The position numbers and the translations under genes were made by a program. Source: Gemmatimonadales bacterium (GTDB taxonomy: Bacteria; Gemmatimonadota; Gemmatimonadetes; Gemmatimonadales; GWC2-71-9). Taken from it: a stretch of DNA of 16,144 bases. This document shows, one piece after another, positions 1 through 14,266 of the stretch. Position 1 is the stretch's first letter. Each line of letters starts with the position of its first letter. The stretch lies in the NCBI GenBank assembly GCA_035637235.1, contig DASPXO010000025.1:1-16144 (forward strand). Direction: 5' to 3'. The notes below the pieces were generated by a model, which made no database searches, was not told the DNA's origin, and was given only the letters and a program-made list of their open reading frames with translations.

Positions 1-698
1 GCCGGCACGGCCGACAGGTGCGCCACGTTTTCGAACGCCGGGATGTCCGCGGCGAACAGCGTCTCGTGGGTGTCGAAGGTGGTGGACTGCCCGTAGTCGA
101 TGCTCGGCGTGTCGATCCCGACGGCGTGCACCTTGCGTTCGACCAGCCAGCGGGCCGCGTCCGGATGGATTCCCGGGAAGTGCAGCTCCGGCACCGCCGC
201 GGGCCCGGTCCTGGCGGTGCCGAGGTAGCGGGCGCGATCGGGCCAGCGGTTCCCCCAGCCGGTCCGAAACAGCACGATCGCTCCCTCGGGAATCCGCGTG
301 CCGGCCCGCTCCCACGCCTCGAGATCGGCGGGTGTGATGCGGTAGTCGCGGTCCGCCTCCGCCTGCCGGCGCACGTCGATCACGAACGCCGGGCCGGCGA
401 GCTGGGTGAGGGGGATCTGGTCGGTCGTGTGCCTGCCTTCGGCGAAGTGTACCGGCGCATCGAGATGGGTGCCGCCGTGCTCTGCCGCGGCGAAGTTGTT
501 CGCGGCGTAGTAGTAGCCCGCGGGCGTCCGCCGCGCCGAGACGACCTCGAGCGCGAACGGCTTGGCCGTGGGCCAATAGATCGTGGTCGAGTCGAAGGGG
601 TAGCTGAGATCGATCCAGGTGGCGCGGGCCAGCTGTCCGGTGAGGGAGGGACGGGCGCAGGCGGCGGCCGCTAGCAGAAGAGGCAGCATTCGAATCAT
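1..698 (-). CDS. Cyclase-family protein (arylformamidase / kynurenine-formamidase-like), N-terminal part only; the 3' end lies beyond the window start
   Basis: Reverse-complement reading from ATG (rc of 696-698) gives MIRMLPLLLAAAACARPSLTGQLARATWIDLSYPFDSTTIYWP...EHGGTHLDAPVHFAEGRHTTDQIP. The HxGTHxDxPxH motif (about nt 430-470) is the hallmark of the PF04199 cyclase family. GC3 is very high. The N-terminus looks like a signal peptide. The ORF runs off the edge, so it is absent from the ORF track, and + ORF 18..674 is its antisense shadow. Confidence 0.8.
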   Translation of the reverse strand, partial: MIRMLPLLLAAAACARPSLTGQLARATWIDLSYPFDSTTIYWPTAKPFALEVVSARRTPAGYYYAANNFAAAEHGGTHLDAPVHFAEGRHTTDQIPLTQLAGPAFVIDVRRQAEADRDYRITPADLEAWERAGTRIPEGAIVLFRTGWGNRWPDRARYLGTARTGPAAVPELHFPGIHPDAARWLVERKVHAVGIDTPSIDYGQSTTFDTHETLFAADIPAFENVAHLSAVP

Positions 699-794
699 GA
701 GCGTGCTCCGTGCTGGTCCCGGGCTAAGAGCGAATCCATAATGGAGTCGTTCCCCGAATTGGCAACCCGCCCGCAGGTGGGTACGTTGACACCT

Positions 795-1019
795 ATGAAC
801 AACCTCACAATCGTCGGTCTCGTCCTCCTCGCCGCCTGTGGCAGCGGCGGCCAATCCGAGAAGTCCGGCGCCGCCTCAGGCGACTCGCTCACCGAGCGGC
901 AGCGGGACAGCATGCTCGCGAAGTCGAGCATTCCCGGCGCCTCCGGCGTGGGCCGCGCGATGCGCGTGGCCGACTCGACCAGCGCCCGGGTGCGGGCGAC
1001 GGACAGCGTGTCGCCTTGA
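795..1019 (+). CDS. Small lipoprotein (74 aa), unknown function
   Basis: ATG at 795 in frame with ORF 741..1019. The N-terminus MNNLTIVGLVLLAACGSGG has a lipobox LAAC. GC3 is high over the whole ORF. An alternative start at ATG 741 lacks the signal peptide. Confidence 0.55.
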   Translation: MNNLTIVGLVLLAACGSGGQSEKSGAASGDSLTERQRDSMLAKSSIPGASGVGRAMRVADSTSARVRATDSVSP

Positions 1020-1021
1020 CC

Positions 1022-1037
1022 TGACCTCACCCCCTGA
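1022..1037 (+). repeat. Copy 1 of exact 16-nt motif TGACCTCACCCCCTGA, preceded by TTGACC
   Basis: Identical 16-mer at 3484-3499. Both copies lie in short intergenic gaps directly after a lipoprotein gene stop and before the next start codon. Confidence 0.6.
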
Positions 1038-1078
1038 CCCCCTCTCCGTAGCGGAGAGGGGGGACGAAGTGGTGAGGT
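1024..1078 (+). promoter_or_regulatory. Compound stem-loop in the NfeD leader: a perfect 11-bp GC-rich hairpin (ccccctctccg / tag / cggagaggggg, 1038-1062) nested inside an 8-bp outer stem (acctcacc 1024-1031 with ggtgaggt 1071-1078)
   Basis: Read directly from the sequence. The 3' arm contains the only SD-like purine tract (gagagggggga) and the candidate GTG starts at 1069/1072. No U-tract follows, so this is not a canonical intrinsic terminator. Confidence 0.5.
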
Positions 1079-1116
1079 CTCTTCCGCAAGGCAGTCCCGG
1101 GCTTCACTTTCAGGTC

Positions 1117-1731
1117 ATGCTCAGCGTCTACCTGTTCGCGGCGATCGTGGGGACGGGCTTGCTGCTGTTCAGTCTCCTCGGCGGCCACCACGGCGGCGGA
1201 GACGCGGGAGTGGGCCACGAGGTCGCGCTCGGCCACGGTGACGTCGGCCACGGCCACCCGGTACTCGCCGACGCGGAGCACCCGGGTGTCGGCGAAGCGA
1301 TCATCAGCCTGTTCCGCCCACGCAACATCATCTTTTTCGCAGCCGGGTTCGGGCTGACCGGGACGCTGCTGACGCTGCTCCGCACGAATCCGGCATTCAC
1401 GCTGCTCGCGTCGCTCGGCATGGGCACGGGCTTCTTCCTGCTCAGCCACACGGTGTTTTCCTTCCTGCGGCGCTCCGACACGGCCACCGAGGCGCTCACC
1501 GAGTCGGAATTCCTCGGGGAGCGCGGCCGGGTCACCCTGCCCCTCGAGCAGGGGCGTCCCGGACGGATCGCCTGCCTCATCGCCGGCCGCGAGGTGCATC
1601 TCACGGCCCATCTCTCGGACGGTAGCGTCGGGGAGATCCCGGCCGGCCGGGAAGTCGTCGTGGTGAAGGTCGTCGACGGGGTGGCGGAGGTGTGCACCCC
1701 CGAGCAGTACGAGCGCCAACTGCCAGCGTAA
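1117..1731 (+). CDS. NfeD-like membrane protein (short NfeD / YqiJ type) with C-terminal OB-fold domain
   Basis: Read from ATG 1117 (MLSVYLFAAIVGTGLLLFSLLGG...), this is the later part of ORF 838..1731. It has several TM helices and a C-terminal beta-rich segment GRVTLPLEQGRPGRIACLIAGREVHLTAHLSDGSVGEIPAGREVVVVKVVDGVAEV typical of the NfeD C-terminal domain. It sits immediately upstream of a flotillin gene, the classic nfeD-flotillin pairing. Alternative in-frame GTG starts lie at 1069/1072, after a G-rich SD-like gagagggggga. Confidence 0.8.
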   Translation: MLSVYLFAAIVGTGLLLFSLLGGHHGGGDAGVGHEVALGHGDVGHGHPVLADAEHPGVGEAIISLFRPRNIIFFAAGFGLTGTLLTLLRTNPAFTLLASLGMGTGFFLLSHTVFSFLRRSDTATEALTESEFLGERGRVTLPLEQGRPGRIACLIAGREVHLTAHLSDGSVGEIPAGREVVVVKVVDGVAEVCTPEQYERQLPA

Positions 1732-1740
1732 GAGGTCGCC

Positions 1741-3024
1741 ATGGACTTGTCTCCCGTCACCGTCGTCGCCCTCGCGGCCGTCGCGCTGGGCCTTGTGGGC
1801 GCGCTCGTCGGAATGGTCCGGTCGCTCATCGTGATCTGCATGCCGAACGAAATGGTGGTGGTCAGCGGCCGGCGTCGGGTCACGGAGGACGGGCGGAGCG
1901 TCGGGTACCGGGTGCTGCACGGCGGGCGCACGCTGCGGGTCCCGATCATCGAGAAGGTCTCGCGCATCGATCTCCGGACGATTCCGATCGAGGTGATGAT
2001 CAAGAACGCCTACTCGAAGGGCGGGATACCCCTGATCGTGCAGGGCATCGCCAACGTGAAGGTGTGCGCGCGCGAGCCGATCTCCTACAACGCGGTGGAG
2101 CGGCTGCTCGACAAACCGTTCGACGAGATCATGCAGATCGCGAAGGATACGCTCGAGGGCAACCTGCGCGGCGTGCTGGCGACGCTCACGCCCGAGGAAG
2201 TCAACGAGGACCGCCTCAAGTTCGCCCAGCGGCTGATCGAGGAGGCCGACGAGGACCTGAAGAAGCTGGGGCTCGAGCTCGACACGCTGAAGATCCAGAA
2301 CGTCACGGACGACGTGAAGTACCTCGACTCGATCGGGCGGACGCGCACCGCGGAGATCTTGAAGATCGCGCGCGTCGCCGAGGCGCAGCGCACCTCCGAG
2401 GCGGAGCAGACCGAAGCGTCGTCGCGCCAGGCGGCCCAGATCGCGAAGATCCAGGCGGACCTGAAGATCACGGAGGAGAACAACCGGCTCCGCGTCCGCA
2501 AAGCCGAGCTCGAAGCGGAGGCGCTGGCGCGGGAGAACGAGGCGCAGGTGGCCGGCGAGAAGGCGAAGGTCAAGGCGCAGCAGGATCTCCAGGCCGCGCG
2601 CATCGACCTCGAGGCCAAGCGCGTCGAGGCCGACGTCGTCGTGCCCGCCCGGGCCGACCGAGAGGCCTCGGAGCTGCGCGCCAAGGGCGCCGCGGCGTCG
2701 ATCCTCGAGAACGGCAACGCCAACCTCGCCGTGCTCGACCGCATGATCCAGCTCTACAGCAAGGCGGGGAACGAGGCCGAGCGGATTTTCATCCTGAACA
2801 TGCTGCCGGAGATCATCAAGGAACTGGCGGGCTCGGTGGAGCAGATCAAGATCGACAAGCTGGCGGTGATCGACTCGGGGAACGGCGCCGGCGTCGCTTC
2901 CGCGGCGGCGCAGTTTCCCCAGGCGATCATCAAGCTGACGGAGCAGATCGAGGGCGCGACCGGGATCAACATCCTGTCGCGGCTGCAGAAGCCGGCCGAG
3001 CAGCCGAAGCGTGCCGAGAAGTAG
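1741..3024 (+). CDS. Flotillin-like SPFH/band-7 protein (YqiK/FloT family)
   Basis: 427 aa. An N-terminal TM helix is followed by an SPFH core (VVSGRRRVTEDGRSVGYRVLHGGRTLRVPIIEKVSRIDLRTIPIEV...GGIPLIVQGIANVKV) and a long E/A/K/Q-rich coiled-coil (flotillin EA repeats). SD aagagg lies 5 nt before ATG 1741, which is 10 nt after the NfeD stop. Confidence 0.9.
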   Translation: MDLSPVTVVALAAVALGLVGALVGMVRSLIVICMPNEMVVVSGRRRVTEDGRSVGYRVLHGGRTLRVPIIEKVSRIDLRTIPIEVMIKNAYSKGGIPLIVQGIANVKVCAREPISYNAVERLLDKPFDEIMQIAKDTLEGNLRGVLATLTPEEVNEDRLKFAQRLIEEADEDLKKLGLELDTLKIQNVTDDVKYLDSIGRTRTAEILKIARVAEAQRTSEAEQTEASSRQAAQIAKIQADLKITEENNRLRVRKAELEAEALARENEAQVAGEKAKVKAQQDLQAARIDLEAKRVEADVVVPARADREASELRAKGAAASILENGNANLAVLDRMIQLYSKAGNEAERIFILNMLPEIIKELAGSVEQIKIDKLAVIDSGNGAGVASAAAQFPQAIIKLTEQIEGATGINILSRLQKPAEQPKRAEK

Positions 3025-3475
3025 TCTCGCTCTCCTCGCGTTCGCCGCCGCCTGCGGACCCACCGATCCCTGCCGCTCCCCCCCGATGCATCTCCGGAGC
3101 CGCTACGCGCGAGCATATGTCGGCCACTGGCGCGTGGCGCACGGGGACACGCTCACGCTCCCCGAGATGGGCGACCGGTTCAAGCTCAGCGACGTCGTGC
3201 TCGACAGCGCCCGGATCGCGGTGGGGCGAGCGTGTCACTTCAAGGGGCGGCTCGTGTTCCAGGTCCCGCGCGCCGAGACCCTCGCGGTGACGTGGTTCGG
3301 CCAACCCGAGCGGGCGCTCATCTTCGGCTGGCCGGCGGAGCTGGGGCCGTTCGCCGGGATCGAGGCGGTCCGCGTGGGCGATTCGCTCGCGGGTGCGATT
3401 CTGTTCGACGAGCGGTTGGGCGTGCGGGTGCCCCCCGGGGTCACGGCGCGCTTCGTCGCGGGCCGGGCACGGTGA
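3011..3475 (+). CDS. Hypothetical lipoprotein (154 aa)
   Basis: A GTG start at 3011 overlaps the flotillin stop (3022-3024) by 14 nt. The N-terminus SSLALLAFAAACGPTDP has lipobox AAAC. GC3 is high from about codon 30 onward. No recognisable domain. The start is uncertain; the next in-frame ATG (MHLRS...) would remove the signal peptide. Confidence 0.5.
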   Translation: MPRSSLALLAFAAACGPTDPCRSPPMHLRSRYARAYVGHWRVAHGDTLTLPEMGDRFKLSDVVLDSARIAVGRACHFKGRLVFQVPRAETLAVTWFGQPERALIFGWPAELGPFAGIEAVRVGDSLAGAILFDERLGVRVPPGVTARFVAGRAR

Positions 3476-3483
3476 AGTATCTT

Positions 3484-3499
3484 TGACCTCACCCCCTGA
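3484..3499 (+). repeat. Copy 2 of exact 16-nt motif TGACCTCACCCCCTGA, preceded by TTTGACC
   Basis: Same 16-mer as 1022-1037. Here CCTCA-ccccc-TGAGG forms a 5-bp hairpin whose 3' arm overlaps the SD gaggaga of the DinB_2 gene (ATG 3510). Confidence 0.6.
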
Positions 3500-3509
3500 G
3501 GAGAGCAAC

Positions 3510-4031
3510 ATGCCCTTCACCGCCGCCGAGCGCGCCGCCCTGATCGAGCGCTACGCCCACGGTCCCGCGCTCCTGAAGCGCGCTCTCGCCAGGGTCCCCG
3601 CCGAGGCCCTCCAATGGAAACCGGCTCCCGGCAAGTGGTCGGCCCACGAGATCGTCGTCCACTGCGCGGACTCCGAGACCAACGCCCACATGCGGCTGCG
3701 CTACCTGCTCGCCGAGCCGGACCCCATGATCGTGGGATACGACCAGGACCGCTGGGCCGCGGCGTTCGCCTACCACGGGCACCCGATCGAAGTCGCGCTC
3801 GCGACCGTCGAGGCCGTGCGGGCCAACACGGTGCCCCTGCTGAAGCGGATGACCGACCGGGACTGGGGCAAAGTCGGCCGGCACACGGAGTCCGGCCGCT
3901 ACGCCGTGGAAGACTGGCTCGCCATCTACGCCGAGCACCTCGAGAAGCACTCGCGCCAGATCGAGCGAAACCTCGCCGAGTGGAGCGACCGTCCCCCCCC
4001 TCCGCGACGCGGCGAGGGGGCCAGGGGGTGA
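3510..4031 (+). CDS. DinB/YfiT-like (DinB_2 superfamily) putative metal-dependent enzyme
   Basis: ATG 3510 is preceded by SD gaggaga and is in frame with ORF 3393..4031. Sequence MPFTAAERAALIERYAHGPALLKRALARVPAEALQWKPAPGKWSAHEIVVHCADSETNAHMRLRYLL...YAEHLEKHSRQIE carries the His triad pattern of DinB_2 proteins. The C-terminal tail is Pro/Arg/Gly-rich. Confidence 0.85.
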   Translation: MPFTAAERAALIERYAHGPALLKRALARVPAEALQWKPAPGKWSAHEIVVHCADSETNAHMRLRYLLAEPDPMIVGYDQDRWAAAFAYHGHPIEVALATVEAVRANTVPLLKRMTDRDWGKVGRHTESGRYAVEDWLAIYAEHLEKHSRQIERNLAEWSDRPPPPRRGEGARG

Positions 4032-4036
4032 GGCCG

Positions 4037-4432
4037 ATGAGGGGATTCCTGTTTCGCCTGCTCATCACCGCCCTCGGCCTGTGGGCCGCCGCCACCATCG
4101 TTCCCGGGGTCACGATCCGCGGCGTCGGGAACCTGATCGTCGCGGCGCTGCTGCTCGGGCTGGTGAACGCGGTCATCCGACCGGTCATCCTCATCCTGAC
4201 CCTTCCGTTGACGGTGCTCACGCTGGGGCTGTTCATCCTGGTCGTGAACGGGATTTCGCTCGCGCTCGTGGCGTGGCTGATGCCGGGGTTCACCATCGCC
4301 GGGCTGCCCCCGGCGATCCTCGGCTCGATCGTGGTCGGGCTGACCAGCTGGTTCGCTTCCGCGTTCGTCGGCGGCTCGGGCCGCATCGAGCGGATTCGCC
4401 ACATCGAGGTGAGCGGGCGCCGGCTCGATTGA
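4037..4432 (+). CDS. DUF360 / phage-holin-4_2-like small membrane protein (YvlD-like)
   Basis: ATG 4037 (MRGFLFRLLITALGLWAAATIVPGVTIRGVGNLIVAALLLGLVNAVIRPVILILTLPLTVLTLGLFILVVNGISLALVAWLMPGF...) gives four predicted TM helices, typical of DUF360. This is the later part of ORF 3614..4432. A G-rich SD (gggggtgagg) lies upstream. Confidence 0.8.
   Translation: MRGFLFRLLITALGLWAAATIVPGVTIRGVGNLIVAALLLGLVNAVIRPVILILTLPLTVLTLGLFILVVNGISLALVAWLMPGFTIAGLPPAILGSIVVGLTSWFASAFVGGSGRIERIRHIEVSGRRLD
4348..4432 (+). repeat. Direct-repeat copy A (3' end of the intact DUF360 gene), partner at 5968-6051
   Basis: See pseudogene entry 5968..6051. The two copies bracket a 1.5-kb segment carrying the DUF423 and GT87-like genes. 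Confidence 0.7.
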
Positions 4433-4800
4433 TGGACCGGCTCTTCGCGGGGCTTGGCGCCGCGTCGGCGTTGCTCGCGGTGGCCGCCGGCGCGTTCGGC
4501 GCGCACGCGCTGCGCGCCCGGACGCCCGCCGACCTCCTCGCGGTGTTCGAAACCGCAGCCCGCTACCAGATGTACCATGCGCTGGCGCTGCTCGCCGTTG
4601 CCTGGGCGGTGACGCGCTGGCCCGTGCCTGCTGTGCGCGCCGCCGGGTGGCTGTTCGTCGCCGGCACGGTGACCTTCTCCGGCTCGCTCTATCTGCTCGC
4701 GCTGACCGGCGTGCGCGCCTTCGGCGCCGCCACGCCCTTTGGCGGGCTCGCGTTCCTGGCAGGCTGGCTCGCGCTGGCGGTGGGCGTGTGGCGGGGCTGA
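4432..4800 (+). CDS. DUF423 family membrane protein (YgdD-like)
   Basis: ATG 4432 overlaps the DUF360 stop (tgATG). Sequence MDRLFAGLGAASALLAVAAGAFGAHALRA...YQMYHALALLAVAW...VTFSGSLYLLALTG...TPFGGLAFLAGWLALAVGVWRG matches the conserved GAFGAH, Y.xH.LA, FSGSLY.LAL and TP.GG..FLAGW blocks of DUF423. It lies in the frame of ORF 4081..4800. Confidence 0.85.
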   Translation: MDRLFAGLGAASALLAVAAGAFGAHALRARTPADLLAVFETAARYQMYHALALLAVAWAVTRWPVPAVRAAGWLFVAGTVTFSGSLYLLALTGVRAFGAATPFGGLAFLAGWLALAVGVWRG

Positions 4801-5933
4801 CCCCGCGGGAGCGGCGCATCCTCGTCGCGCTCGGGGGACTGTACGCCCTTGTCAATACGTTCATCGGCGTCCACTCCGGCGGCGATCTCGTGTTCCACCT
4901 GCGCCTGGCCGAGCGCCTGATGCAGGGTCTGCCGCTGTACGCGGACTTCGACACGGCGCGTGGCATGCCGTGGCCGCCGTTTGCGATATTCGCGTTGACC
5001 CCGTTTGCGCTCCTGGCTCGCCTCAGTTTGCCGGTCGCCAAGGGCTTGTGGGCGGTCGGCAACGTGGCGCTGTTCGGCTGGTGCGTGGTGCGCGCGTATT
5101 CCCGCGTCGGCCGCTGGCTCCCCGTCGTACTCGCCGTCGCCGCCGTGGCCCAGCCGCTCCAGAGCAACTTCCAGCACCTGAACATCAACATCGCGCTGCT
5201 GGGGCTGGTCGTGTTCGCCATGGACGATGTCGAGCGGGGGCGCGACATGCGGGCGACACTGTGGATTGGCGTCGCCACCGCGCTCAAGGGCTACCCCGGA
5301 GCGATCTTTCTCTATTTCCTCGCGCGCGGCCGCTGGCGGCCGCTGGCCGCGGGCCTCGTCGCCGCGGTCGGGCTCAGTTTCCTGGTGATGCTTCCCGCCG
5401 GTCTCGGGGGAGCCGCGATCGTCCCCGACTACGTACACCTCGCTCTGACCGCCCAGAGCACGAAGGCGCTCGCGGGCCAATCGATCGGCGGGCTCGTCGC
5501 CCGTTTGGGGGGAGGCGTTGCGACCGCAGTGGCGCTCGACCTCATCGCCTCCGGTGTGGTGGCCGCGGCGCTGTGGCGCCGCCGGCGGCTCCAGTCGGGT
5601 GCGGCGGCGTCCGACCTCGGGATGGCCGCGGTGCTCGCCGTGCTGCTCGCGCCGCTCGACCGGCTCCACTACTACGTTCTCGGATTCCCGGCGTGGACCG
5701 ACACGTTTGGCCGCCCCGCACCGGCGCGCGGGCGCACGGCGTGGTTCACCGCGCTCGCCGTCGGGGCATTCCTCACGTCGGGGATGCTGAGCCATATCCA
5801 CGGCCCTCTTCCCGCGGTCTTGTGGATCATTCGCAAGAATACCTACAACCTCGGCGCGCTGATCCTGCTCGGCATTCTCGTGATCCAGCGCGCCCGCGTC
5901 CCCGAACCTCCTCCGGCACCGCAACCTCCATGA
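4788..5933 (+). CDS. Polytopic membrane protein, DUF2029 / glycosyltransferase-87-like (function tentative)
   Basis: Frame of ORF 4647..5933. A GTG at 4788 overlaps the DUF423 stop by 13 nt. The 5' part of the ORF-track ORF is the DUF423 gene read out of frame, so the true start must be near 4788 (alternatives: CTG 4794, or ATG giving MQGLPLYADF about 4920). At least 8 hydrophobic segments, high GC3, Pro-rich C-terminal tail PEPPPAPQPP. The GT87/DUF2029 assignment is by general resemblance only. Confidence 0.6.
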   Translation: MAGLTPRERRILVALGGLYALVNTFIGVHSGGDLVFHLRLAERLMQGLPLYADFDTARGMPWPPFAIFALTPFALLARLSLPVAKGLWAVGNVALFGWCVVRAYSRVGRWLPVVLAVAAVAQPLQSNFQHLNINIALLGLVVFAMDDVERGRDMRATLWIGVATALKGYPGAIFLYFLARGRWRPLAAGLVAAVGLSFLVMLPAGLGGAAIVPDYVHLALTAQSTKALAGQSIGGLVARLGGGVATAVALDLIASGVVAAALWRRRRLQSGAAASDLGMAAVLAVLLAPLDRLHYYVLGFPAWTDTFGRPAPARGRTAWFTALAVGAFLTSGMLSHIHGPLPAVLWIIRKNTYNLGALILLGILVIQRARVPEPPPAPQPP

Positions 5934-5967
5934 CACCTGCCCCACTCTTGCTGTCGGCGCTCTCCTC

Positions 5968-6051
5968 CGGTTCGCGTCCGCGTTCGTCGGCCGCTCGGGC
6001 CGTATCGAGCGGATTCGCCCCATCGAGGTGACGGGGCGCCGCCTCGACTGA
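5968..6051 (+). pseudogene. Remnant of the 3' end of a second DUF360-family gene (28 codons plus stop), about 90% identical to 4348..4432
   Basis: Direct nucleotide alignment of 5968-6051 with 4348-4432 shows about 9 mismatches in 85 nt. The in-frame translation RFASAFVGRSGRIERIRPIEVTGRRLD* compares with WFASAFVGGSGRIERIRHIEVSGRRLD*. Most substitutions are synonymous and the stop codon is conserved. No start or upstream ORF was found. Confidence 0.55.
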
Positions 6052-6181
6052 GGGAAGCCCGGAAGATCTCGAAGAAGGCGCGTCTCGACTTGTAAGGCAG
6101 CAACCACAAAGCTGCCACAAAAATCCCCGCGGCTCGGCGCGCGCACGCTCCGCGCCGTGCCGCCGTGCCTTCCTTCCCCAT

Positions 6182-6217
6182 GTGCGAAAACGCCTTAGGC
6201 GGTGCGAACGCGCCTTA
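6182..6217 (+). promoter_or_regulatory. Two direct repeats GTGCGAAAACGCCTTA / GTGCGAACGCGCCTTA (14/16 identical), 20 nt centre to centre, 80-115 nt upstream of the giant MPE/PKD gene
   Basis: Read directly from the sequence (6182-6197 and 6202-6217). The two-helical-turn spacing is typical of a dimeric or tandem-binding transcription factor site. It lies in a 240-nt non-coding leader of locally lower GC. Confidence 0.4.
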
Positions 6218-6244
6218 CACGCGAGGCACGGCGCGTGCTCCAGG

Positions 6245-6273
6245 GGGGTCGCAAGCCCACGCCCTGCGACCCC
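6245..6273 (+). other. 9-bp stem-loop ggggtcgca / 11-nt loop / tgcgacccc, 22 nt upstream of ATG 6295
   Basis: Perfect inverted repeat read from the sequence. No U-tract follows. It could be an mRNA 5'UTR structure. Confidence 0.35.
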
Positions 6274-6294
6274 TTGAGCCGAGCTGCCCACTAG

Positions 6295-9200
6295 ATGACG
6301 CCGATCCGCTCCATCCGCTCCGTTGTTCGCGTGCTGTCAACCATCGCCGCCCTCTACGTCGTCGAGAGCTGTCGCGACTACCAAGGGCCCGGGTCGCCGA
6401 CCGGGGCGCCGGATCGGTCCGCGCCCGGCTTCGAAGTCTCCCCAGCGCCCCTCCCGGTGACGCTCGTGGGCGCGGGGAACATCGCTAGCTGCAAGAACAC
6501 CAACGACGACGCCACGGCTGCCCTTTTGGACGGGATCCCGGGGACCGTGTTCGCGCTCGGGGACAACGCCTACGACAACGGCACCCTCACCCAGTACAAC
6601 ACCTGCTACAACCCGAACTGGGGACGGCACAAGACCCGCACCCAGCCGGCGGTGGGCGACCGCGACTACAAGACCACCAACGCGGGCGGCTACTTCGGCT
6701 ACTTCGGCAGCGCCGCGGGCGATCCGACAAAGGGCTACTACAGCTACGAACTCGGCGCCTGGCACATCGTCGTGCTCAACAGCAACAGCTCCAAGGTCCC
6801 GACCGCCGCGGGCTCGGCCCAGGAGCAGTGGCTGCGCGCGGACCTCGCCGCCCATCCCGGGCGCTGCACCCTGGCCTACTGGCACCACCCCCGGTTCAGC
6901 TCCAAGGACAGCCCCAACAGCGCCATCACCCCGCTGTGGAACGCGCTCTATGCCGCCGGCGTGGACGTGGTGGTGAACGCCCACTACGCCTTCTACGAGC
7001 GGTTCGCGCCCCAGACCCCGGCCGGCGCCGCCGATGCGGCGTTTGGCATCCGGGAGTTCATCGCCGGTACGGGGGGCGGGGAAACCGGGTCGTTCGGCAC
7101 GGTCCGGGCGAACAGCGAGGTCCGGAGCAGCGGCACGCCGGGCGTGCTCAAGCTCACGCTCGACGCCGACGGCTACGCCTGGGAGTTCGTGCCGATCGCC
7201 GGCAAGACGTTCCGCGACTCGGGGACCGGCGGCTGCCATGGCGCGCCCCCGCTGTCCGTGAACGCCGGGGCCGATGTCACGGCCAGCCCGGGGGACACGG
7301 TGAAGCTCGCCGTCACGCTCACCGATCCCGCGAACGCCCCCCCGTGGACATACACGATCCTGTGGGGCGACGGCGGCTCGAGCAACGGAACCGCCCAATC
7401 CTCGCCGATCATCGCCTCGCACGTGTACTCGGCGCTGGGCCTCGACAGCGTACGCGTCGCCGTCACGAGCAACGTGGGAGGGTCCGGCTCGGACTCACTC
7501 GCCGTGCAGGTGGTCGTGCGGCCCACGTCGGTCGTCCTGGTAGGCGCCGGCGACATCGCCGACTGCACCAGGAACAGCGACTCTCTCACCGCGAACCTGC
7601 TCGACGGCATCCCGGGCACCGTGTTCACGGCGGGCGACAACGCTTACCCCGACGCCTCGAGCAGCGACTACACCAACTGCTACCACCCGACTTGGGGCCG
7701 GCACAAAGCCAGGACCCGACCGGTCCCGGGCAACCACGAGTACAGCACCTCCGGCGCCACACCGTATTACAGCTACTTCGGCGCGGCGGCCGGCGATCCC
7801 ACGAAAGGCTATTACAGCTACGACCTCGGCGATTGGCACATCATCGCCCTGAACTCGAACATCGCGTACGGTGCGGGGTCCGCCCAGGAGCAATGGCTGC
7901 GTGCCGACCTGGCGGCAAGCACGAAGCGCTGCACGCTCGCCTACCTGCATCATCCCCTCTTCAGCTCCGGCACTCTGGCCGCGGCCGGGACACAGGTCCT
8001 GTGGCAGGACCTGTACGTCGCCGGCGCCGAGATCGTGGTCGCCGGGCACGAGCACAACTACCAGCGCTTCGCTCCCGAGACCCCGACCGGCGTGGCCGAT
8101 CCGGTCTACGGTATTCGCGAATTCATCGCGGGGATGGGCGGCGCGGGCCATTTCAGCGTGGGAACAGCCCTGGCGAACACCGAGGTGCAGGAGGACCAGA
8201 CCTATGGGGTCCTCAAGCTGACGTTGTACGCCGCCCGCTACGACTGGGCGTTCGTCCCCGTCGCCGGCAAGACCTTCACGGACTCCGGCAACGAGACGTG
8301 CCATGATGCCCCGGGAGCCGTGAATCACGCGCCCATCGCCGCTGCCGGCGGACCCTACGCCGGCGTGGAGGGCGGCGCGGTCAGCTTCATCGGGAGCGGC
8401 TCCTCGGATCCCGACGGTGACGCGCTGACCTACGCCTGGAGCTTCGGCGACGGCGGCACCGGTAGCGGCGTCAACCCCAGTCACAGCTACGCCGACAACG
8501 GCAGCTACACCGTGACGCTGGCCGTCACCGACGCGCGCGGTGCGTCCAGCTCGGCGGCCACCATCACTGCGACGGTCGCCAATGCGGCGCCCTCGGTCAA
8601 CGCGGGAGCCAATCAGGCCATCGGTGTGGGCGCGAGCTACACGCTCGGCGCCGGCTTCAGCGATCCCGGCACCAACGACGCTCCCTGGGCGTACTCGATC
8701 GACTGGGGTGACGGCTCGTCGCCGACGACCGGGAGCACGACCAGTCAGTCGAGCGCCATCACGGCCACGCACCCATACCCTGCGGCGGGCAGCGACACCG
8801 TGCGCGTGACGGTCACCGACAAGGATGGCGCAACGGGCTCGGGACAGCTCACCGTGACGGTGAGCGACGCGAATCAGCCGCCCACCGCCACGGCCGGCGG
8901 TCCGTATGCCGGCACGGAGGGGACGGCGGTCAGCTTCGACGGTAGCGGCTCGTCGGACCCCGATGGGGACGCTTTGACCTACGCCTGGAGCTTCGGCGAC
9001 GGCGGCACGGGCAGCGGCGTGAAACCCAGCCACAGCTACGCCGACAACGGCGCCTATTCCGTGACGCTCACCGTCACCGACGCCCGCGGGGCGTCCGGCT
9101 CGGCGGCCACGACCACCGCCACGATCGGCAACGTGGCGCCCTCGGTCAACGCGGGCGTAAATCAGACCGTCACCGCGGGGACGAGCGTCACGCTCGATGC

Positions 9201-10212
9201 CGCCTTCAGCGATCCCGGCGCGAACGACGCGCCCTGGTCGTATTCGATCGACTGGGGCGACGGCTCGTCGCCGACGACCGGGGGCACGTCCACGCAGTCC
9301 AGCGCCATCACGGCCACGCATCCATACTCTGCGGCGGGCAGCAACATCGTGCGCGTCACGGTCACGGACAAGGATGGCGCAACCGGCTCGGGACAGCTCA
9401 CCGTGACCGTCACGCAGCCGGGGACGAGCGTCACGCTCGTCGGGGCCGGCGAGGTGACACGGTGCGACAACACGAAGGACGAGGCGACCGCGCTGCTGCT
9501 GGACGACATCCCTGGGACCGTCTTCACCACGGGCGACAACATCCGCGCCAGCGGGTCGCTGTCCGATTTCACCTCGTGCTACGATCCCTCGTGGGGCCGG
9601 CACAAGGCGAGGACGCGGCCGTCGCTCGGCGCGTATGAGTATCAGACCGCCGGCGCTGCGGGGTATTTCGACTACTTCGCGCTCGCCGGCGGAGAGCGGG
9701 ACAAGGGTTACTACACCTACGAGCTCGGCGACTGGCACATCGTCGTGCTGAACAGCAACATCGACATGACCGTCGGCTCCCCGCAGGAGCAATGGCTCCG
9801 CACCGACTTGGCGGCGAGCACGAAGCGCTGCACCCTGGCGTACTGGGCTCACCCCCGATTCAGCTCCTACTCGACGGCCGTGCGCTCGGGCGTCAAGCCG
9901 CTGTGGGATGACCTCTACGCCGCGGGCGCCGAGGTGGTGCTCAACGGGCACTACCGGCTGTACGAGCGGTTCGCCCCGCAGACCCCGGATGAAGTGGCCG
10001 ACCCGCAGAACGGCATCCGTCAATTCACCGTCGGAACGGGCGGGCATGGAGTCGATGCCTTCGGCACCACCCCCCGGCCGAACAGCGAAGTGCGGATCAG
10101 CGGCACGTACGGTGTGCTGCAGCTCACGCTGGGCGACGGCGTCTACTCCTGGCAGTTCGTCCCGGTGGCGGGCCAGACGGCGACCGACTCGGGAAGCGGG
10201 ACTTGCCACTAA
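6295..10212 (+). CDS. Secreted 1305-aa multidomain protein with three purple-acid-phosphatase-like metallophosphoesterase (MPE) domains, of which only the middle one is intact, interleaved with PKD and PKD-like domains
   Basis: ORF-track ORF with ATG 6295, N-terminal signal peptide (MTPIRSIRSVVRVLSTIAALYVVESC) and high GC3 throughout. MPE domain 2 (about nt 7528-8310) carries GDIAD, GDNAY, GNHEY, LHHP and GHEHNYQRF, i.e. the PAP motifs GDxxY / GNHE / xxH / GHxH. Domain 1 (about 6457-7255) reads GNIAS / GDNAY / GDRDY / WHHP / NAHYAFYERF. Domain 3 (about 9430-10209) reads GEVTR / GDNIR / GAYEY / WAHP / GHYRLYERF. Each domain ends F-VP-AGxT--DSG---CH. Between them are PKD domains (VSFxGSGSSDPDGDALTYAWSFGDGGTGSG...YTVTLxVTDARGAS) and PKD-like WGDG-containing domains. 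Confidence 0.9.
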   Translation: MTPIRSIRSVVRVLSTIAALYVVESCRDYQGPGSPTGAPDRSAPGFEVSPAPLPVTLVGAGNIASCKNTNDDATAALLDGIPGTVFALGDNAYDNGTLTQYNTCYNPNWGRHKTRTQPAVGDRDYKTTNAGGYFGYFGSAAGDPTKGYYSYELGAWHIVVLNSNSSKVPTAAGSAQEQWLRADLAAHPGRCTLAYWHHPRFSSKDSPNSAITPLWNALYAAGVDVVVNAHYAFYERFAPQTPAGAADAAFGIREFIAGTGGGETGSFGTVRANSEVRSSGTPGVLKLTLDADGYAWEFVPIAGKTFRDSGTGGCHGAPPLSVNAGADVTASPGDTVKLAVTLTDPANAPPWTYTILWGDGGSSNGTAQSSPIIASHVYSALGLDSVRVAVTSNVGGSGSDSLAVQVVVRPTSVVLVGAGDIADCTRNSDSLTANLLDGIPGTVFTAGDNAYPDASSSDYTNCYHPTWGRHKARTRPVPGNHEYSTSGATPYYSYFGAAAGDPTKGYYSYDLGDWHIIALNSNIAYGAGSAQEQWLRADLAASTKRCTLAYLHHPLFSSGTLAAAGTQVLWQDLYVAGAEIVVAGHEHNYQRFAPETPTGVADPVYGIREFIAGMGGAGHFSVGTALANTEVQEDQTYGVLKLTLYAARYDWAFVPVAGKTFTDSGNETCHDAPGAVNHAPIAAAGGPYAGVEGGAVSFIGSGSSDPDGDALTYAWSFGDGGTGSGVNPSHSYADNGSYTVTLAVTDARGASSSAATITATVANAAPSVNAGANQAIGVGASYTLGAGFSDPGTNDAPWAYSIDWGDGSSPTTGSTTSQSSAITATHPYPAAGSDTVRVTVTDKDGATGSGQLTVTVSDANQPPTATAGGPYAGTEGTAVSFDGSGSSDPDGDALTYAWSFGDGGTGSGVKPSHSYADNGAYSVTLTVTDARGASGSAATTTATIGNVAPSVNAGVNQTVTAGTSVTLDAAFSDPGANDAPWSYSIDWGDGSSPTTGGTSTQSSAITATHPYSAAGSNIVRVTVTDKDGATGSGQLTVTVTQPGTSVTLVGAGEVTRCDNTKDEATALLLDDIPGTVFTTGDNIRASGSLSDFTSCYDPSWGRHKARTRPSLGAYEYQTAGAAGYFDYFALAGGERDKGYYTYELGDWHIVVLNSNIDMTVGSPQEQWLRTDLAASTKRCTLAYWAHPRFSSYSTAVRSGVKPLWDDLYAAGAEVVLNGHYRLYERFAPQTPDEVADPQNGIRQFTVGTGGHGVDAFGTTPRPNSEVRISGTYGVLQLTLGDGVYSWQFVPVAGQTATDSGSGTCH
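8345..9420 (+). repeat. Intragenic tandem duplication, 2 x about 549 nt (183 codons), each unit encoding one PKD plus one PKD-like domain
   Basis: Unit A (from about 8345, gccggcggaccctacgccggcgtggag...) and unit B (from about 8894, gccggcggtccgtatgccggcacggag...) align along their full length at an estimated 85-90% nucleotide identity. The protein units are GGPYAGVEGGAVSFIGSGSSDPDGDALTYAWSFGDGGTGSGVNPSHSYADNGSYTVTL... and GGPYAGTEGTAVSFDGSGSSDPDGDALTYAWSFGDGGTGSGVKPSHSYADNGAYSVTL... Confidence 0.85.
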
Positions 10213-10215
10213 AGG

Positions 10216-10308
10216 CTAGGGGCTAAGGAGCTAAGGGGCTAAGGGGCTAAGGGCCATGGCTGGGTTCTAGCCCTGTCCCGAGCCCCTAGCCCCTAGCCCC
10301 TAGCCCCC
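10216..10308 (+). repeat. Palindromic minisatellite: (GGGGCTAA)-like x 4-5 on the + strand (10216-10253), a 29-nt spacer, then (CCCCTAGC) x 3 (10283-10308)
   Basis: Sequence ggctaggggctaaggagctaaggggctaaggggctaaggg ... cccctagcccctagcccctagccccc. The two arms are imperfectly complementary, giving a long hairpin or cruciform. Each arm also provides at least four G3-4 runs on one strand (left arm on +, right arm on -), i.e. G-quadruplex-capable tracts. It sits between the stop of the giant gene (10212) and the DSD1-like gene (10362). Confidence 0.7.
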
Positions 10309-10361
10309 AGTTACACTCCACGGGGTGTGAAGCCAGGAACCACGACGGCCAGGGACTTCCC

Positions 10362-11474
10362 GTGACCACGCGCGTCCAGGACCTCGAAACCCCAGCCCTG
10401 CTGCTCCACCTCGACGTCGTGCGGCGCAACGTGAAGCGCATGGCGGAGCGGGCGAAGCAGCTCGGCGTGAAGCTTCGGCCGCACGCCAAGACCCACAAGT
10501 GCGTCGAGCTGGGGCGGCTGCAGCTCGAGCACGGCGCGCATGGGCTCACCGTGGCGACGACCGTGGAAGCGGAGGTGTTCGCGCGCGCCGGGGTCCGGGA
10601 CATCACCTGGGCGTTCCCCGTGGATCCGGGTCACATCGCGCGCATGCGCCGCCTCGCCGACGCGACCGGCGCGCTCGTGCGGCTCGTGGTGGACGATCTG
10701 GGCACGGCCAAGGCGCTCGCCGGATCGGGGCTCCACGTCTGGCTCAAAGTGGACTGCGGCTATCACCGCGCCGGGGTCGACCCGACGTCGCCCTACGCCC
10801 TCGAGGTCGGGCGCGAGCTGGGGCGCGAGCGCGGACTCACGTTCGACGGCATCTTGAGCCACTCGGGCCACGCGTACCGCACGAAGACCAAGCAGGAAGC
10901 GGCGCAGGTCGCCGAGCAGGAACGCAGCGTCATGGTGGGCTTCGCCGAGCGAGTACGGAAAGAGGGCGTCCCGCTGCGCGAGATCAGCGTCGGCTCGACG
11001 CCCGCGATGGCGGCGGTGGAGCGCCTCGACGGCGTCACCGAGGCGCGCCCCGGGAACTACGTCTTCTACGACCGGACGATGGTGCTGATCGGCTGCTGCG
11101 CGCCGGAGGACGTCGGCGTGACCGTGCTCGCGTCGGTCGTGTCGCACCAGCCGGGCGCGGCGCACTTCATCGTGGACGCGGGGGCGCTCGCGCTGTCCAA
11201 GGACACGGGGCCGGGGCACGTCGGCCCGCCGGCGATGGGCGCGGTGCGGGGACACCCGGAGCTGACGATCGCGACGCTGTCGCAGGAGCACGGTCTCATC
11301 CGGGCCGAGTCGCCCGCGGCCATCGAGGGTCGGTTCACGGTGGGCGAGAAGGTCGAGATCGTTCCCAACCACTCGTGCCTGACGGTCGCGCATTTCGACG
11401 AGTACCACGTCGTGAGCGGGATGGACGACGGGGGACACGTCGTGGACCGCTGGAGGGTGGAGCGCGGACGATGA
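10362..11474 (+). CDS. PLP-dependent DSD1-family enzyme (D-serine dehydratase-like / D-threonine-aldolase-like; alanine-racemase-type fold)
   Basis: GTG start at 10362 (ORF track). The block LRPHAKTHKC contains the family PLP-lysine signature (PHxKTHKC). A C-terminal beta domain is present. 370 aa, high GC3. Confidence 0.88.
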   Translation: MTTRVQDLETPALLLHLDVVRRNVKRMAERAKQLGVKLRPHAKTHKCVELGRLQLEHGAHGLTVATTVEAEVFARAGVRDITWAFPVDPGHIARMRRLADATGALVRLVVDDLGTAKALAGSGLHVWLKVDCGYHRAGVDPTSPYALEVGRELGRERGLTFDGILSHSGHAYRTKTKQEAAQVAEQERSVMVGFAERVRKEGVPLREISVGSTPAMAAVERLDGVTEARPGNYVFYDRTMVLIGCCAPEDVGVTVLASVVSHQPGAAHFIVDAGALALSKDTGPGHVGPPAMGAVRGHPELTIATLSQEHGLIRAESPAAIEGRFTVGEKVEIVPNHSCLTVAHFDEYHVVSGMDDGGHVVDRWRVERGR

Positions 11475-11893
11475 GCGCACCGCTGCCATCGTTCCCACCG
11501 CCGCCTCCGGCGCTCGTGGCGCTGGCCTGGGCGGTCGTCGGCCCGCCGCTCCTCGTCCTTGCCGCGACCCGGGTGCGGCGGGGACAGATCCGGGTGCACA
11601 TGACCCTGATGCTGGTGAGCGTCGTCGTCGAGCTCGCGGTCGTCGTCGGGTTCTCTTTTCTGATGACGCCGAGCCCGCGTCGCGCGGCGCTCACGGCGCT
11701 GCCCTTCTTCAAGATTCACCTCGCGTTCGCGATCGCGACGCTCGCGGGGATCGCCTGGCAGCTCGTGAGCCGGACGGTGCCCAGGCTGCGCCCGCTGCAC
11801 CGGCACACCGGTCCTTACGTGGTGCTCGTGTGGTGCCTCGCGCTGTTGACGGGGATCTACAACTACGTCTTCCTCTACGTCATGAGCGGCTGA
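11471..11893 (+). CDS. DUF420 family membrane protein (CtaM/YozB-like)
   Basis: ATG 11471 overlaps the upstream stop (ATGA). The 140-aa protein has 4 TM helices and the conserved DUF420 blocks IRVHMTLMLVSV, FFKIHLAFAIATLAGIAW and LHRHTGPYVVLVWCLALLTGIYNYVFLYVM. It lies in the frame of ORF 10499..11893. Confidence 0.82.
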   Translation: MSAPLPSFPPPPPALVALAWAVVGPPLLVLAATRVRRGQIRVHMTLMLVSVVVELAVVVGFSFLMTPSPRRAALTALPFFKIHLAFAIATLAGIAWQLVSRTVPRLRPLHRHTGPYVVLVWCLALLTGIYNYVFLYVMSG

Positions 11894-12171
11894 TGAAAGT
11901 CTTTCTCCGCCATCTGTTCCTGGCCGCCCTGCCCCTCCTGTTCGGGCTCGGGGCGAGCTACGGCTTCGCGCTCAGCATGCAGTCCTGCGGCCGCCTGGTG
12001 GGCGCGGTGTTTGCGTCCAAGTGCCACGGGCGACAGCTCGAATACCAGCTGCTGTTCCAGACCGGCGGGACCGGCCTGGGTACGCTCTTCGCGGCCGTGC
12101 TGGGCGCCCGGCTGGAACATCGACGCCGCCGCGCCGTACAACGGCCTGAACCCACAGGAGGACATTCATGA
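11893..12171 (+). CDS. Small (92 aa) hypothetical membrane protein with a C-x11-CH motif
   Basis: ATG 11893 overlaps the DUF420 stop (TGATG). Sequence MKVFLRHLFLAALPLLFGLGASYGFALSMQSCGRLVGAVFASKCHGRQLEYQLLFQTGGTGLGTLFAAVLGA... begins with a hydrophobic N-terminus. The stop overlaps the next start (ATGA). This is the later part of ORF 11830..12171. Confidence 0.5.
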   Translation: MKVFLRHLFLAALPLLFGLGASYGFALSMQSCGRLVGAVFASKCHGRQLEYQLLFQTGGTGLGTLFAAVLGARLEHRRRRAVQRPEPTGGHS

Positions 12172-12587
12172 CACGGACCTGCGGCATCCTTCCGCTGGCG
12201 CTGCTGGCCGCGCGCGGTCTCGCCGCGCAGGACACCACCCAGGCGATGGCGATGCCGGCCGTCGAGGTCACCGAGGCGGTCGTGGCGAAGTCGCTGGTGG
12301 ACCGCCAACCGCAAGACACCGGGTCCGCGTTCCCGGCGGACGTGGGCCAGCTCATCTGCTGGACCAAAGTGAGCGGCGCGCCGGCGGAGACCGGGACGAC
12401 GCTTCACCACGTTTGGTTTCACGGCGACACCCAGGTCGGCGACGTCGAGCTGCACGTCGCGGGCTCGCCGTGGCGCACGTGGAGCCGCAAGACGGTCCCG
12501 CCGGACTGGACGGGCGCCTGGCACGTCGAGGTGAGAGATGGCTCAGGGACCGTGCTGAAGCGAATCGACTTCACGGTAGGGCAATAG
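12168..12587 (+). CDS. Secreted DUF2914-domain protein
   Basis: A strong SD aggagg lies 6 nt before ATG 12168. The signal peptide is MTRTCGILPLALLAARGLAAQD. The C-terminal domain ...ICWTKVSGAPAETGTTLHHVWFHGDTQVGDVELHVAGSPWRTWSRKTVPPDWTGAWHVEVRDGSGTVLKRIDFTV matches the conserved W-Y/F-H, SPRWRTWS-K and W-G-W-V-V pattern of DUF2914. Confidence 0.75.
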   Translation: MTRTCGILPLALLAARGLAAQDTTQAMAMPAVEVTEAVVAKSLVDRQPQDTGSAFPADVGQLICWTKVSGAPAETGTTLHHVWFHGDTQVGDVELHVAGSPWRTWSRKTVPPDWTGAWHVEVRDGSGTVLKRIDFTVGQ

Positions 12588-12602
12588 GACCGCGCCCCGG
12601 CC

Positions 12603-12656
12603 ACCCCGGGCTCGCACCCCGGGCTCGCGCCCGGGGTCAGTCGCCCGGGGTCAGTC
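12603..12656. terminator. Two tandem 13-mers ACCCCGGGCTCGC (12603-12628) followed by two tandem 14-mers GCCCGGGGTCAGTC (12629-12656) whose cores are reverse complements (ACCCCGGGC / GCCCGGGGT). This gives a 9-bp GC hairpin with a 4-nt loop, or a larger cruciform, at a convergent gene junction.
   Basis: Read directly from the sequence. It lies between the DUF2914 stop (12587) and the minus-strand gene stop (12651-12653) and overlaps the latter's last codons. No U-tracts; a bidirectional terminator role is only inferred from position. Confidence 0.4.
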
Positions 12657-13268: not shown

Positions 13269-13281
13269 GCGCCGGCGCCGG

Positions 13282-14184: not shown

Positions 14185-14266
14185 GCGACGCCTCACGCAG
14201 GGAGGATGGCAACAAGATGAGTGACCGGTCGGTTTTGTGCCAGAGGACGAAGGCGCGAAACACCGT

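Follow-up and report, generated by a model that had tools for sequence, protein, structure and literature searches.

A repeated 16-nucleotide motif at a Gemmatimonadales locus is one arm of a short multi-copy repeat with an intrastrand-triplex layout

The DNA analyzed here, called the window, is a stretch of 16,144 nucleotides (nt) from a Gemmatimonadales bacterium (assembly GCA_035637235.1, contig DASPXO010000025.1, positions 1 to 16,144). It carries two lipoprotein-like open reading frames (ORFs), lipo1 and lipo2, with the lipoboxes LLAAC and FAAAC, along with genes for an NfeD-like membrane protein, a flotillin, a DinB_2 family protein, and a holin-like protein. Within this set of genes the 16-mer TGACCTCACCCCCTGA occurs twice, at 1022-1037 and 3484-3499. 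As the original prediction, made from the letters alone, had described, a window search found the two copies to be identical and each to lie between the stop codon of a lipoprotein-like ORF (TGA 1017-1019 and TGA 3473-3475) and the next start codon. The 16-mer is one arm of a multi-copy repeat of the BoxC/PIT/TM (triplex motif) class and not a regulator common to two neighboring genes. To our knowledge, about 30 years of study have given these repeats neither an accepted function nor an accepted mechanism of spread. The window matches WNGF01007991.1 and comes from a soil Gemmatimonadales, the order under which its flotillin homologues are named. The genes next to the motif are as follows.

741-1019, plus strand: lipoprotein-like ORF 1 (lipo1), probable start 795, stop 5 nt 5' of the third arm of copy 1
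1117-1731, plus strand: NfeD-like membrane protein gene, ATG 1117
3011-3475, plus strand: lipoprotein-like ORF 2 (lipo2)
3510-4031, plus strand: DinB_2 family gene, 173 amino acids, bracketed by copy 2 (plus) and copy 3 (minus)

This recurrence lies far outside what chance would give, as had been supposed. With up to 3 mismatches allowed, the 16-mer has 3 matches in the window, while 200 dinucleotide-preserving shuffles average 0.12 and never (0/200) reach 3. The third match, with 3 mismatches, lies on the minus strand at 4021-4036 and overlaps an inverted third copy of the element (3992-4033) that the original prediction had missed; this is reflected in a 39-nt inverted repeat, with 1025-1063 being 82% complementary to 3995-4033. 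The hexamer TTGACC, said to lie immediately 5' of both exact copies, does so at copy 1 (1016-1021); its counterpart at copy 2 (3483-3488) runs into the motif itself. TTGACC was considered as a -35 box and rejected, as there is no matching -10 box and the transcript would start in or after the DinB start codon.

In general form, the element reads 5'-CCTCACCCCC-TGR-CCCCCTCTCC-(variable self-complementary apex)-GGAGAGGGGG-RA-3' and is about 42-70 bp long. The 16-mer is very probably the third arm and loop of this short, noncoding, multi-copy repeat, with a pyrimidine (Y) arm, an apex, and a purine (R) arm making up the inner hairpin. The parts of the three copies in the window are listed below.

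1023-1079, plus strand: copy 1, complete, palindromic form, from sequence and fold
1025-1034, plus strand: copy 1 third (Hoogsteen) arm CCTCACCCCC, the core of the 16-mer at 1022-1037
1035-1037, plus strand: copy 1 loop TGA
1038-1047, plus strand: copy 1 Y arm CCCCCTCTCC
1048-1052, plus strand: copy 1 apex GTAGC
1053-1062, plus strand: copy 1 R arm GGAGAGGGGG; the inner hairpin is 1038-1062
1063-1070, plus strand: copy 1 spacer GACGAAGT
1071-1079, plus strand: copy 1 outer arm GGTGAGGTC, pairing with GACCTCACC at 1023-1031 around the inner hairpin
3484-3499, plus strand: copy 2, a solo third arm CCTCACCCCC (3487-3496) with loop TGA, without Y or R arms
3992-4033, minus strand: copy 3, inverted, partly decayed
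3993-4003, read on the plus strand: copy 3 Y arm CCCCCCCCTCC
4004-4010, read on the plus strand: copy 3 apex GCGACGC
4011-4020, read on the plus strand: copy 3 R arm GGCGAGGGGG
4021-4023, read on the plus strand: copy 3 loop CCA
4024-4033, read on the plus strand: copy 3 third arm GGGGGTGAGG

By its predicted layout, the element is an intrastrand triplex motif of class II, purine type. In ITxF class II motifs, a Y, an R, and an RH block follow one another on a single strand; the stems measure 6-15 nt with no more than 1 mismatch, and the loops measure 1-6 nt (Holder 2015, PMC4666352). Copy 1 has all of these properties, and copy 2 is the RH block alone, no motif by itself. Read on the minus strand, copy 1 is CCCCCTCTCC-GCTAC-GGAGAGGGGG-TCA-GGGGGTGAGG, which has 10/10 Watson-Crick pairs and in which the loops measure 5 and 3 nt; GGGGGTGAGG mirrors GGAGAGGGGG, and the letters yield 8 G·GC, 1 T·AT, and 1 A·AT, or 10/10 purine-motif triads. 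Because the third arm mirrors the purine arm on the G-rich strand, one strand could fold back twice into a purine-motif triplex. A pyrimidine-motif equivalent could arise from the C-rich strand, whether as DNA or as RNA.

The three copies are in different states. Copies 1 and 3 both have every part, although copy 3 is decaying, and only the third arm is present at copy 2. The hairpin that had been claimed for both exact copies was borne out at copy 1, where the fold of 1010-1090 (hairpin 1023-1079) reaches -43 kcal/mol with a z score of -4.4 and 0/200 shuffles are as stable, but not at copy 2 (3470-3520), which has no significant hairpin (z score of -1.4, with 14/200 shuffles folding equally well). 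Copy 3, called decayed because of its 2 hairpin mismatches, has 9/10 triads and ends 3 nt 5' of the ATG at 4037. Copy 2 has parallels elsewhere, as 36 of 245 occurrences are third arms that stand alone or are truncated. The outer inverted arms GACCTCACC/GGTGAGGTC are found in copy 1 and in a fourth copy from sister strains, described below, yet in just 7/118 copies overall, and the outer palindromic arm was rejected as a general feature on that count.

Comparison with relatives reveals how these copies came to lie at gene boundaries. All three are absent from the orthologous loci, except for a decayed copy at the copy-1 site, after lipo1, in L142. In relatives L125-L127, whose flotillins are 80-82% identical to that of the window, the NfeD-like gene follows lipo1 after 9 nt with no element between them, and its GTG start aligns with ATG 1117 of the window; the element thus explains the 97-nt gap before the NfeD-like gene. 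In the same relatives, the holin-like gene comes straight after lipo2. GTG 1069 had been a candidate NfeD start, with the R arm as its Shine-Dalgarno (SD) sequence, and was rejected by the orthologue alignment and by two gene callers. Relatives L142-L147, whose DinB proteins are 84-87% identical, encode a DinB of 161 amino acids, the stop of which overlaps the next ATG (ATGA), and these homologues cover 93% of the 173-residue query. At this point the window has 45 extra nt, flanked by CCG on both sides (3989-3991 and 4034-4036), so that insertion of copy 3 accounts for the last 12-13 DinB residues, RPPPPRRGEGARG, and for the TGA stop (4029-4031), all encoded by the element. The 12-residue Pro/Arg/Gly tail of DinB is thereby explained. 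A metagenome scan for the empty site of copy 3, GAGTGGAGCGAC N0-12 ATGAGGGGATTC, returned a single match, by chance, in unrelated DNA. The comparisons show that the element remodels gene ends, giving DinB a 12-residue tail and a new stop and splitting an ancestral overlapping stop and start.

At copy 2, L142-L147 keep GTATCTT downstream of lipo2 and, ahead of the DinB ATG, either GGAGAG or GGAGAC; the spacers that separate the two are unrelated. Copy 2 fills exactly the space between the ancestral GTATCTT and the ancestral DinB SD, GGAGAG. The SD is ancestral and not a part of the element, since orthologues without the motif have GGAGAG or GGAGAC in that place. A reading of this GGAGAG as a remnant of an R arm was rejected, since element-free orthologues show either sequence, equally far from the DinB ATG. 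P0122, the closest DinB without the tail, has a gene order that is different again and is uninformative on the origin of copy 2. Among Gemmatimonadales relatives, the region corresponding to window positions 700-4450 is variable in content, both in the NfeD-flotillin pair between the lipoprotein genes and in DinB before the holin-like gene. L148 also has an extra 130-amino-acid gene 5' of DinB.

These observations bear on the proposal that the motif is a gene-specific cis-regulator, either an operator shared by both sites or an anti-SD (CCUC) element that masks the SD after each lipoprotein gene and so controls translation by coupling or attenuation. Such a role has its attractions, given an identical 16-mer in two similar contexts, a pyrimidine-rich motif beside purine-rich SD-like sequence, and a GGAG (3500-3503) that is well spaced from, and plausible as the SD for, ATG 3510. 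Masking nevertheless finds no support at either site. The 3' hairpin arm of copy 1 is not the SD of the next gene, as the NfeD-like gene starts at ATG 1117, 54 nt past the purine arm, and at copy 2 there is an SD, but it is independent of the motif and kept in orthologues lacking it, next to a fold no better than shuffles. Orthologous leaders lack the motif, apart from the L142 remnant at the copy-1 site, and so do not conserve the hairpins, the outcome that the original prediction itself had named as refuting. An operator for one regulator is likewise unsupported, given the occurrence of the same sequence at at least 119 loci in many phyla, beside unrelated genes of varied Pfam families, and a third copy in the opposite orientation at the 3' end of DinB. 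Finally, a promoter and terminator scan placed no site at the motif, and an Rfam scan of the window at E <= 1 gave no match at any of the three sites. We infer that the element here is not a gene-specific regulator, which would be a very improbable role for it, and a false regulatory lead is thereby removed from the annotation of the window.

Near-identical strains display the element as a polymorphism. In L121, L122, and L123, the 70-nt element TAGACCTCACCCCCTGACCGCCTCTCCACGTTGTGGAGAGGGGGAACGACGAAGTCAGAACGCGGTGAGG, a fourth copy (11277-11346 on L121), replaces GAGAAGTAG (window 3016-3024, plus strand), while the window, L124, and L001 have the empty site. The filled-allele contigs are 99.75-99.97% identical to the window (99.97% and 99.75% on the two sides in L121). 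In the filled allele, flotillin stops two codons earlier at a new TAG, and lipo2 is readable from a GTG inside the right arm of the element, with the lipobox VRSLALLALAAC kept. The sister strains thus show the element giving flotillin a new stop and lipo2 a candidate new start, which explains the polymorphism of the flotillin/lipoprotein junction. L121 holds six copies within 18 kb, each at a gene end. Two of these lie upstream of the part of L121 that matches the window. The complete one, about 5 kb upstream of the fourth copy (L121:6437-6480), has the same apex, ACGTTGT, as that copy; the other (L121:5254-5276) breaks off behind its Y arm and immediately follows the TAA of an mnmA-like gene. 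The fourth copies of L123 and L121 differ by one base, in the Y arm. Separately, the L124 flotillin (L124:5699, about window 2865-2946) has an 81-nt in-frame deletion (400 versus 427 amino acids).

Because the copies in the window sit exactly at the junctions of segments that vary among relatives, the element could also be read as a portable site of homology or recombination at which gene cassettes, namely, NfeD-flotillin and DinB, are gained and lost, somewhat like attC sites or REP-mediated rearrangements. DinB is absent from L125-L127 and NfeD-flotillin from L142-L147. In L121, moreover, NfeD-flotillin lies between two directly oriented copies of the same subfamily, L142 has one decayed copy where NfeD-flotillin would be, DinB in the window is bracketed by inverted third arms, and the literature ties the related E. 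coli TMECO elements to local rearrangement (PMC4666352). However, more distant relatives have the order lipo1-NfeD-flotillin-lipo2 without any element, so the cassette does not need it, and neither an integrase nor a cassette array was seen. The coincidence may mean only that genes and repeats tolerate the same intergenic points, and the polarity of these events cannot be set without a phylogeny. We regard a recombination site as quite unlikely.

The reading of the 16-mer as part of a multi-copy repeat extends well beyond this locus. A scan of one genome per species (596 Gb) located the 20-mer core CCTCACCCCCTGRCCCCCTC at at least 119 loci, where we estimate that chance would yield a handful. 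Among the matches listed are members of the phyla Gemmatimonadota, Acidobacteriota, Chloroflexota, Bacteroidota, Planctomycetota, Myxococcota, SAR324, Desulfobacterota, Armatimonadota, Patescibacteria, Spirochaetota, and Bacillota. The carriers in that list include Gemmatimonadales, Thermoanaerobaculia, Holophagales, Hymenobacter isolates, many Chloroflexota (e.g., the complete genome of Herpetosiphon aurantiacus DSM 785), Planctomycetota, Myxococcales, SAR324, Desulfamplus, Armatimonadota, Leptospirales, and metagenome-assembled genomes (MAGs) of Nomurabacteria and Ruminococcus. The core is also present in 14 viral contigs, and where the gene upstream of the element could be annotated by PHROGs, it was a head or capsid gene (4/4). 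In the IMG/VR contigs L130, L131, L137, and L140, the element lies 2-26 nt after genes for head morphogenesis, head protease, or major head proteins. A literature search on the literal sequence CCTCACCCCC had no relevant paper among the matches listed.

Comparison copies, 131 in all, were fetched by exact match to the 20-mer from these loci, many of them on MAG contigs. The three arms and the following RA are common to all of them, and the apex differs in sequence and length. Mean loop similarity is 0.51 within genomes versus 0.12 between genomes, and the flanks display no such difference. Taken together with the comparisons of relatives and near-identical strains and with the solo arms, this shows duplicative spread, recent turnover, and erosion: copies increase in number inside a genome, and at gene boundaries they come, go, and decay. 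Two further observations concern its surroundings. A second hairpin repeat, GTCATTGCGAG...GAAGCAATC, adjoins the triplex element in a Gemmatimonadales contig (L044:7146-7422) and in one from Dehalococcoidales (L031:~420-480, minus strand); in L044, both are combined in a tandem array of three units that recur about every 114-143 nt. Also, elements in different Acidobacteriota (L006, minus strand, ~7770-7830, and L052:4309-4350) are cut at different points by the same sequence, CATAGGCGCTAACTTA, which may be the end of an insertion sequence (IS) that targets or tolerates triplex elements.

Conservation of the geometry could be assessed in the parts of the element that retrieval leaves free. The R arm is within 1 mismatch in 117 of 130 copies, and the three positions that extend the stem into the apex are paired in 92%, 78%, and 63% of copies, compared with 42%, 39%, and 36% with shuffled partners; all four Watson-Crick pair types are present among them. 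Since the third arm is fixed by the retrieval, other polypyrimidine/polypurine hairpins in the same loci (about 1 Mb) were tested. At least 8 of 9 mirror triads were found 3' of the purine arm in 109 of these 804 hairpins, against 17.4 (maximum of 26) with shuffled flanks, and on the wrong side in 1. A direct-repeat rule accounts for 33 of the 804 versus 109 by the mirror rule, and the third arm is thus of the antiparallel type. Moreover, the third arm covaries with the R arm: GAAGAGGG occurs with GGGTGATG, GGGGAAGGG with GGGATGGGG, GAGGAGGG with GGGAGGTG, and AGGGGAGGG with GGGAGGGGT. As far as can be read from the letters, these patterns show that the hairpin and mirror-arm geometry is selected or generated; a triplex inside the cell is a separate matter.

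Positions relative to genes were taken from a simple codon-log-odds gene caller of our own, the calls of which agree with those recorded for the window except at three starts (6331, 11516, and 795). Intergenic copies number 105 of 130, where random placement would give 17.5. The gene pairs around the element are co-directional in 34 and 29 cases (for its two orientations), convergent in 22, and divergent in 9. In 25 of 62 cases, a gene that reads toward the third arm has its stop no more than 10 nt from the end of that arm, compared with 5 of 53 for the R arm and convergent stops, an asymmetry that arises in part because the repeated unit often runs past the R arm. This pattern is kept in Gemmatimonadota, Thermoanaerobaculia, other taxa, and viral contigs. 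Median distances to start codons are 98 and 145 nt, depending on the side, and a bias in stop-codon type (TAG/TAA) beside the third arm was not significant (p = 0.086). The 148 flanking proteins match 177 Pfam families, and no family contains more than 3 of them; the flanking genes are functionally unrelated, with no sign of a regulon in their predicted domains.

The strongest rival explanation is an RNA 3'-end element, in which the C-rich-strand hairpin past a stop codon would act as a terminator, an attenuator, or a barrier to 3' exonucleases, much as REP stabilizers do, and the repeat would be maintained for that reason. The 5' C-rich arm might stabilize the hairpin through a C+·G-C/U·A-U triple helix, and CCUCACCCCC parallel to GGAGAGGGGG would give 9/10 pyrimidine-motif triples from the sequence. 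The preference of the third arm for co-oriented stops in every taxon subset, the excess of convergent over divergent pairs, and the very stable hairpins all agree with this explanation. So do the viral contigs, where both neighbors of 8 of 11 copies point the same way and have the C-rich strand as sense, and where the four annotatable upstream genes all concern the head or capsid. Nevertheless, there is no U-tract (T does not exceed 25% at any of the 12 positions after the R arm), the terminator scan was empty at 1023-1079, 3484-3499, and 3992-4033, and the two orientations between co-directional genes are nearly equal. PIT/BoxC elements are without promoter or terminator activity in E. coli (PMC4666352). 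Copy 1, moreover, was inserted into a gene pair that is spaced by 9 nt and probably cotranscribed in relatives, where a strong terminator would be harmful, and the stop asymmetry stems partly from the R arm often not being the 3' end of the repeated unit. On this balance, an RNA 3'-end element is unlikely as the reason for the repeat.

In the preferred reading, the element would spread by a mechanism acting in trans or driven by its structure, for example through template switching or slippage at the hairpin or triplex or through an enzyme that recognizes folded DNA. Its effects on neighbors are probably incidental. They include a -43 kcal/mol hairpin within a polycistronic lipo1-NfeD-flotillin mRNA, the uncoupling of DinB from the holin-like gene, and an SD-like purine arm 3 nt before ATG 4037. 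A bolder extension can be put forward only tentatively, and we consider it doubtful: that all copies belong to one family of mini mobile elements, present throughout bacteria and carried by phages, which would have defined ends at CCTCACC (5') and just after GGAGAGGGGGRA (3'), insert beside stop codons, and rebuild gene termini. Its members would be moved by an undiscovered trans-acting enzyme that recognizes the folded hairpin or triplex, or by self-templated replication error, and it would be that recognition, or else horizontal transfer, and not chance convergence that keeps the arms nearly identical in a dozen or more phyla.

Several points weigh against the preferred reading. No transposase is enriched nearby, none appearing among the 25 commonest Pfam families of flanking genes, and the CCG duplication at copy 3, which resembles a target-site duplication, could be chance. 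The bias toward positions after stop codons, together with the location behind phage head genes, hints that a function at RNA 3' ends may exist. The third arm and the first 7 nt of the Y arm are invariant because of the exact 20-mer retrieval, and gene positions depend on a simple caller. In E. coli, the TMECO triplex forms in vitro with single strands and was not detected in vivo (PMC4666352). Also, the literal TMECO consensus is unmatched by the window element (CCCCCTCTCC/GGAGAGGGGG/GGGGGTGAGG), in which A/T positions are shifted. This difference in register and the arm length of 10 nt make the TMECO regular expression fail; as the class II definition holds all the same, we file the element as a member of the BoxC/PIT/TMECO kind with a different register.

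The rest of the window contains other repeats. An 87-nt direct repeat, 90% identical, at 4350-4436 and 5969-6055 duplicates the 3' end of the holin-like gene, including its stop, just after a GT87 glycosyltransferase gene and brackets DUF423-GT87; the presence of DUF423 differs among relatives. A 1305-amino-acid ORF (6295-10212) with Metallophos and PKD domains contains a threefold repeat (units near 6500-7240, 7590-8300, and 9490-10210, with DNA 70-80% identical) and a 300-nt tandem pair at 8319-9167. Between this ORF and the next gene, 10205-10315 forms a large imperfect hairpin in which tandem GGGGCTAA units face CCCCTAG units (-70.4 kcal/mol, z score of -4.6). This repeat differs from the triplex element and has weak miRNA-like Rfam matches only.

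Among known systems, intrinsic terminators resemble the element as G/C-rich stem-loops just after stop codons. However, a stem-loop with a U-tract is not what is found: neither strand has a U-tract, the arm sequence is common across phyla, and the E. coli relatives are without terminator activity (PMC4666352). H-DNA mirror repeats share homopurine/homopyrimidine mirror symmetry, triplex potential, and genetic instability, whereas here one strand would supply all three strands of the triplex, as a hairpin with a fold-back; in H-DNA it is a duplex mirror repeat of which one half becomes unpaired. Miniature inverted-repeat transposable elements (MITEs), such as the Neisseria Correia/NEMIS elements and ERIC, are likewise small, nonautonomous, located at gene boundaries, and polymorphic in presence, and they can supply stops, starts, and SD-like sequence. 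The present element is much shorter than these, with terminal inverted repeats in 7/118 copies, no clear target-site duplication, and no known parent IS.

The original prediction had also offered a small REP-like element as a candidate, and this suggestion proved right in substance, since the element is dispersed, intergenic, and hairpin forming, although it belongs more exactly to the BoxC/PIT/intrastrand-triplex class than to REP (repetitive extragenic palindromic) sequences proper. Like the REP/BIME (bacterial interspersed mosaic element) family, with its REPINs mobilized by REP-associated tyrosine transposases (RAYTs), it is short, G/C-rich, palindromic, dispersed, extragenic, and mostly 3' of genes, with genome-specific families and possible mRNA hairpins. 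In contrast to REP, it has no GTAG at either consensus end and has a mirror-repeat arm, which REP sequences lack; none of the copies had a RAYT gene beside it, and no Y1 transposase is among the 25 commonest flanking families (a statement about flanking genes only).

The closest counterparts are the BoxC/PIT/TMECO elements, which reportedly also figure in work by Bachellier in the 1990s and by Hoyne and Maher in 2000. The shared architecture is specific: one strand holds a C-rich arm, a loop, a purine arm, a 3-nt loop, and a second G-rich arm, with conserved arms, variable loops, and an AGA core of the purine arm that faces TGA in the third arm. The TMECO consensus is CCCTCNCCC N3-6 GGGNGAGGG N3 GGGNGAGGG, exemplified in E. 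coli by CCCTCTCCC-TGT-GGGAGAGGG-CCG-GGGTGAGGG (Holder et al. 2015, PMC4666352). According to the same study, the E. coli elements are always intergenic, unrelated to gene class, without promoter or terminator activity, and linked to local deletions and mutation between strains (PMC4666352). Differences are evident too. Arms in the window are 10 nt long and asymmetric (GGAGAGGGGG/GGGGGTGAGG), while those of TMECO are quasi-symmetric 9-mers (GGGAGAGGG/GGGTGAGGG); loop 2 is YCA and not TTA or CCG; and the third arm often ends right beside a stop codon. The published TMECO count covers 262 proteobacterial genomes, and TMECO is reported to be unassociated with phages or plasmids, whereas the present element occurs in Gemmatimonadota and a dozen or more other phyla and in viral contigs. 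Other TMECO/BoxC traits recur, as the element is multi-copy, intergenic, independent of gene class, and variable between strains, with palindromic double forms and with deletion or mutation between close strains. To what is known of BoxC/PIT/TM repeats, it adds an almost invariant variant spanning many phyla and viral contigs, a filled and an empty site in near-identical strains, covariation of the third arm by the triplex rule, and a bias of that arm to positions after stop codons. These are handles for asking whether triplex geometry, a role at RNA 3' ends, or an enzyme maintains such repeats.

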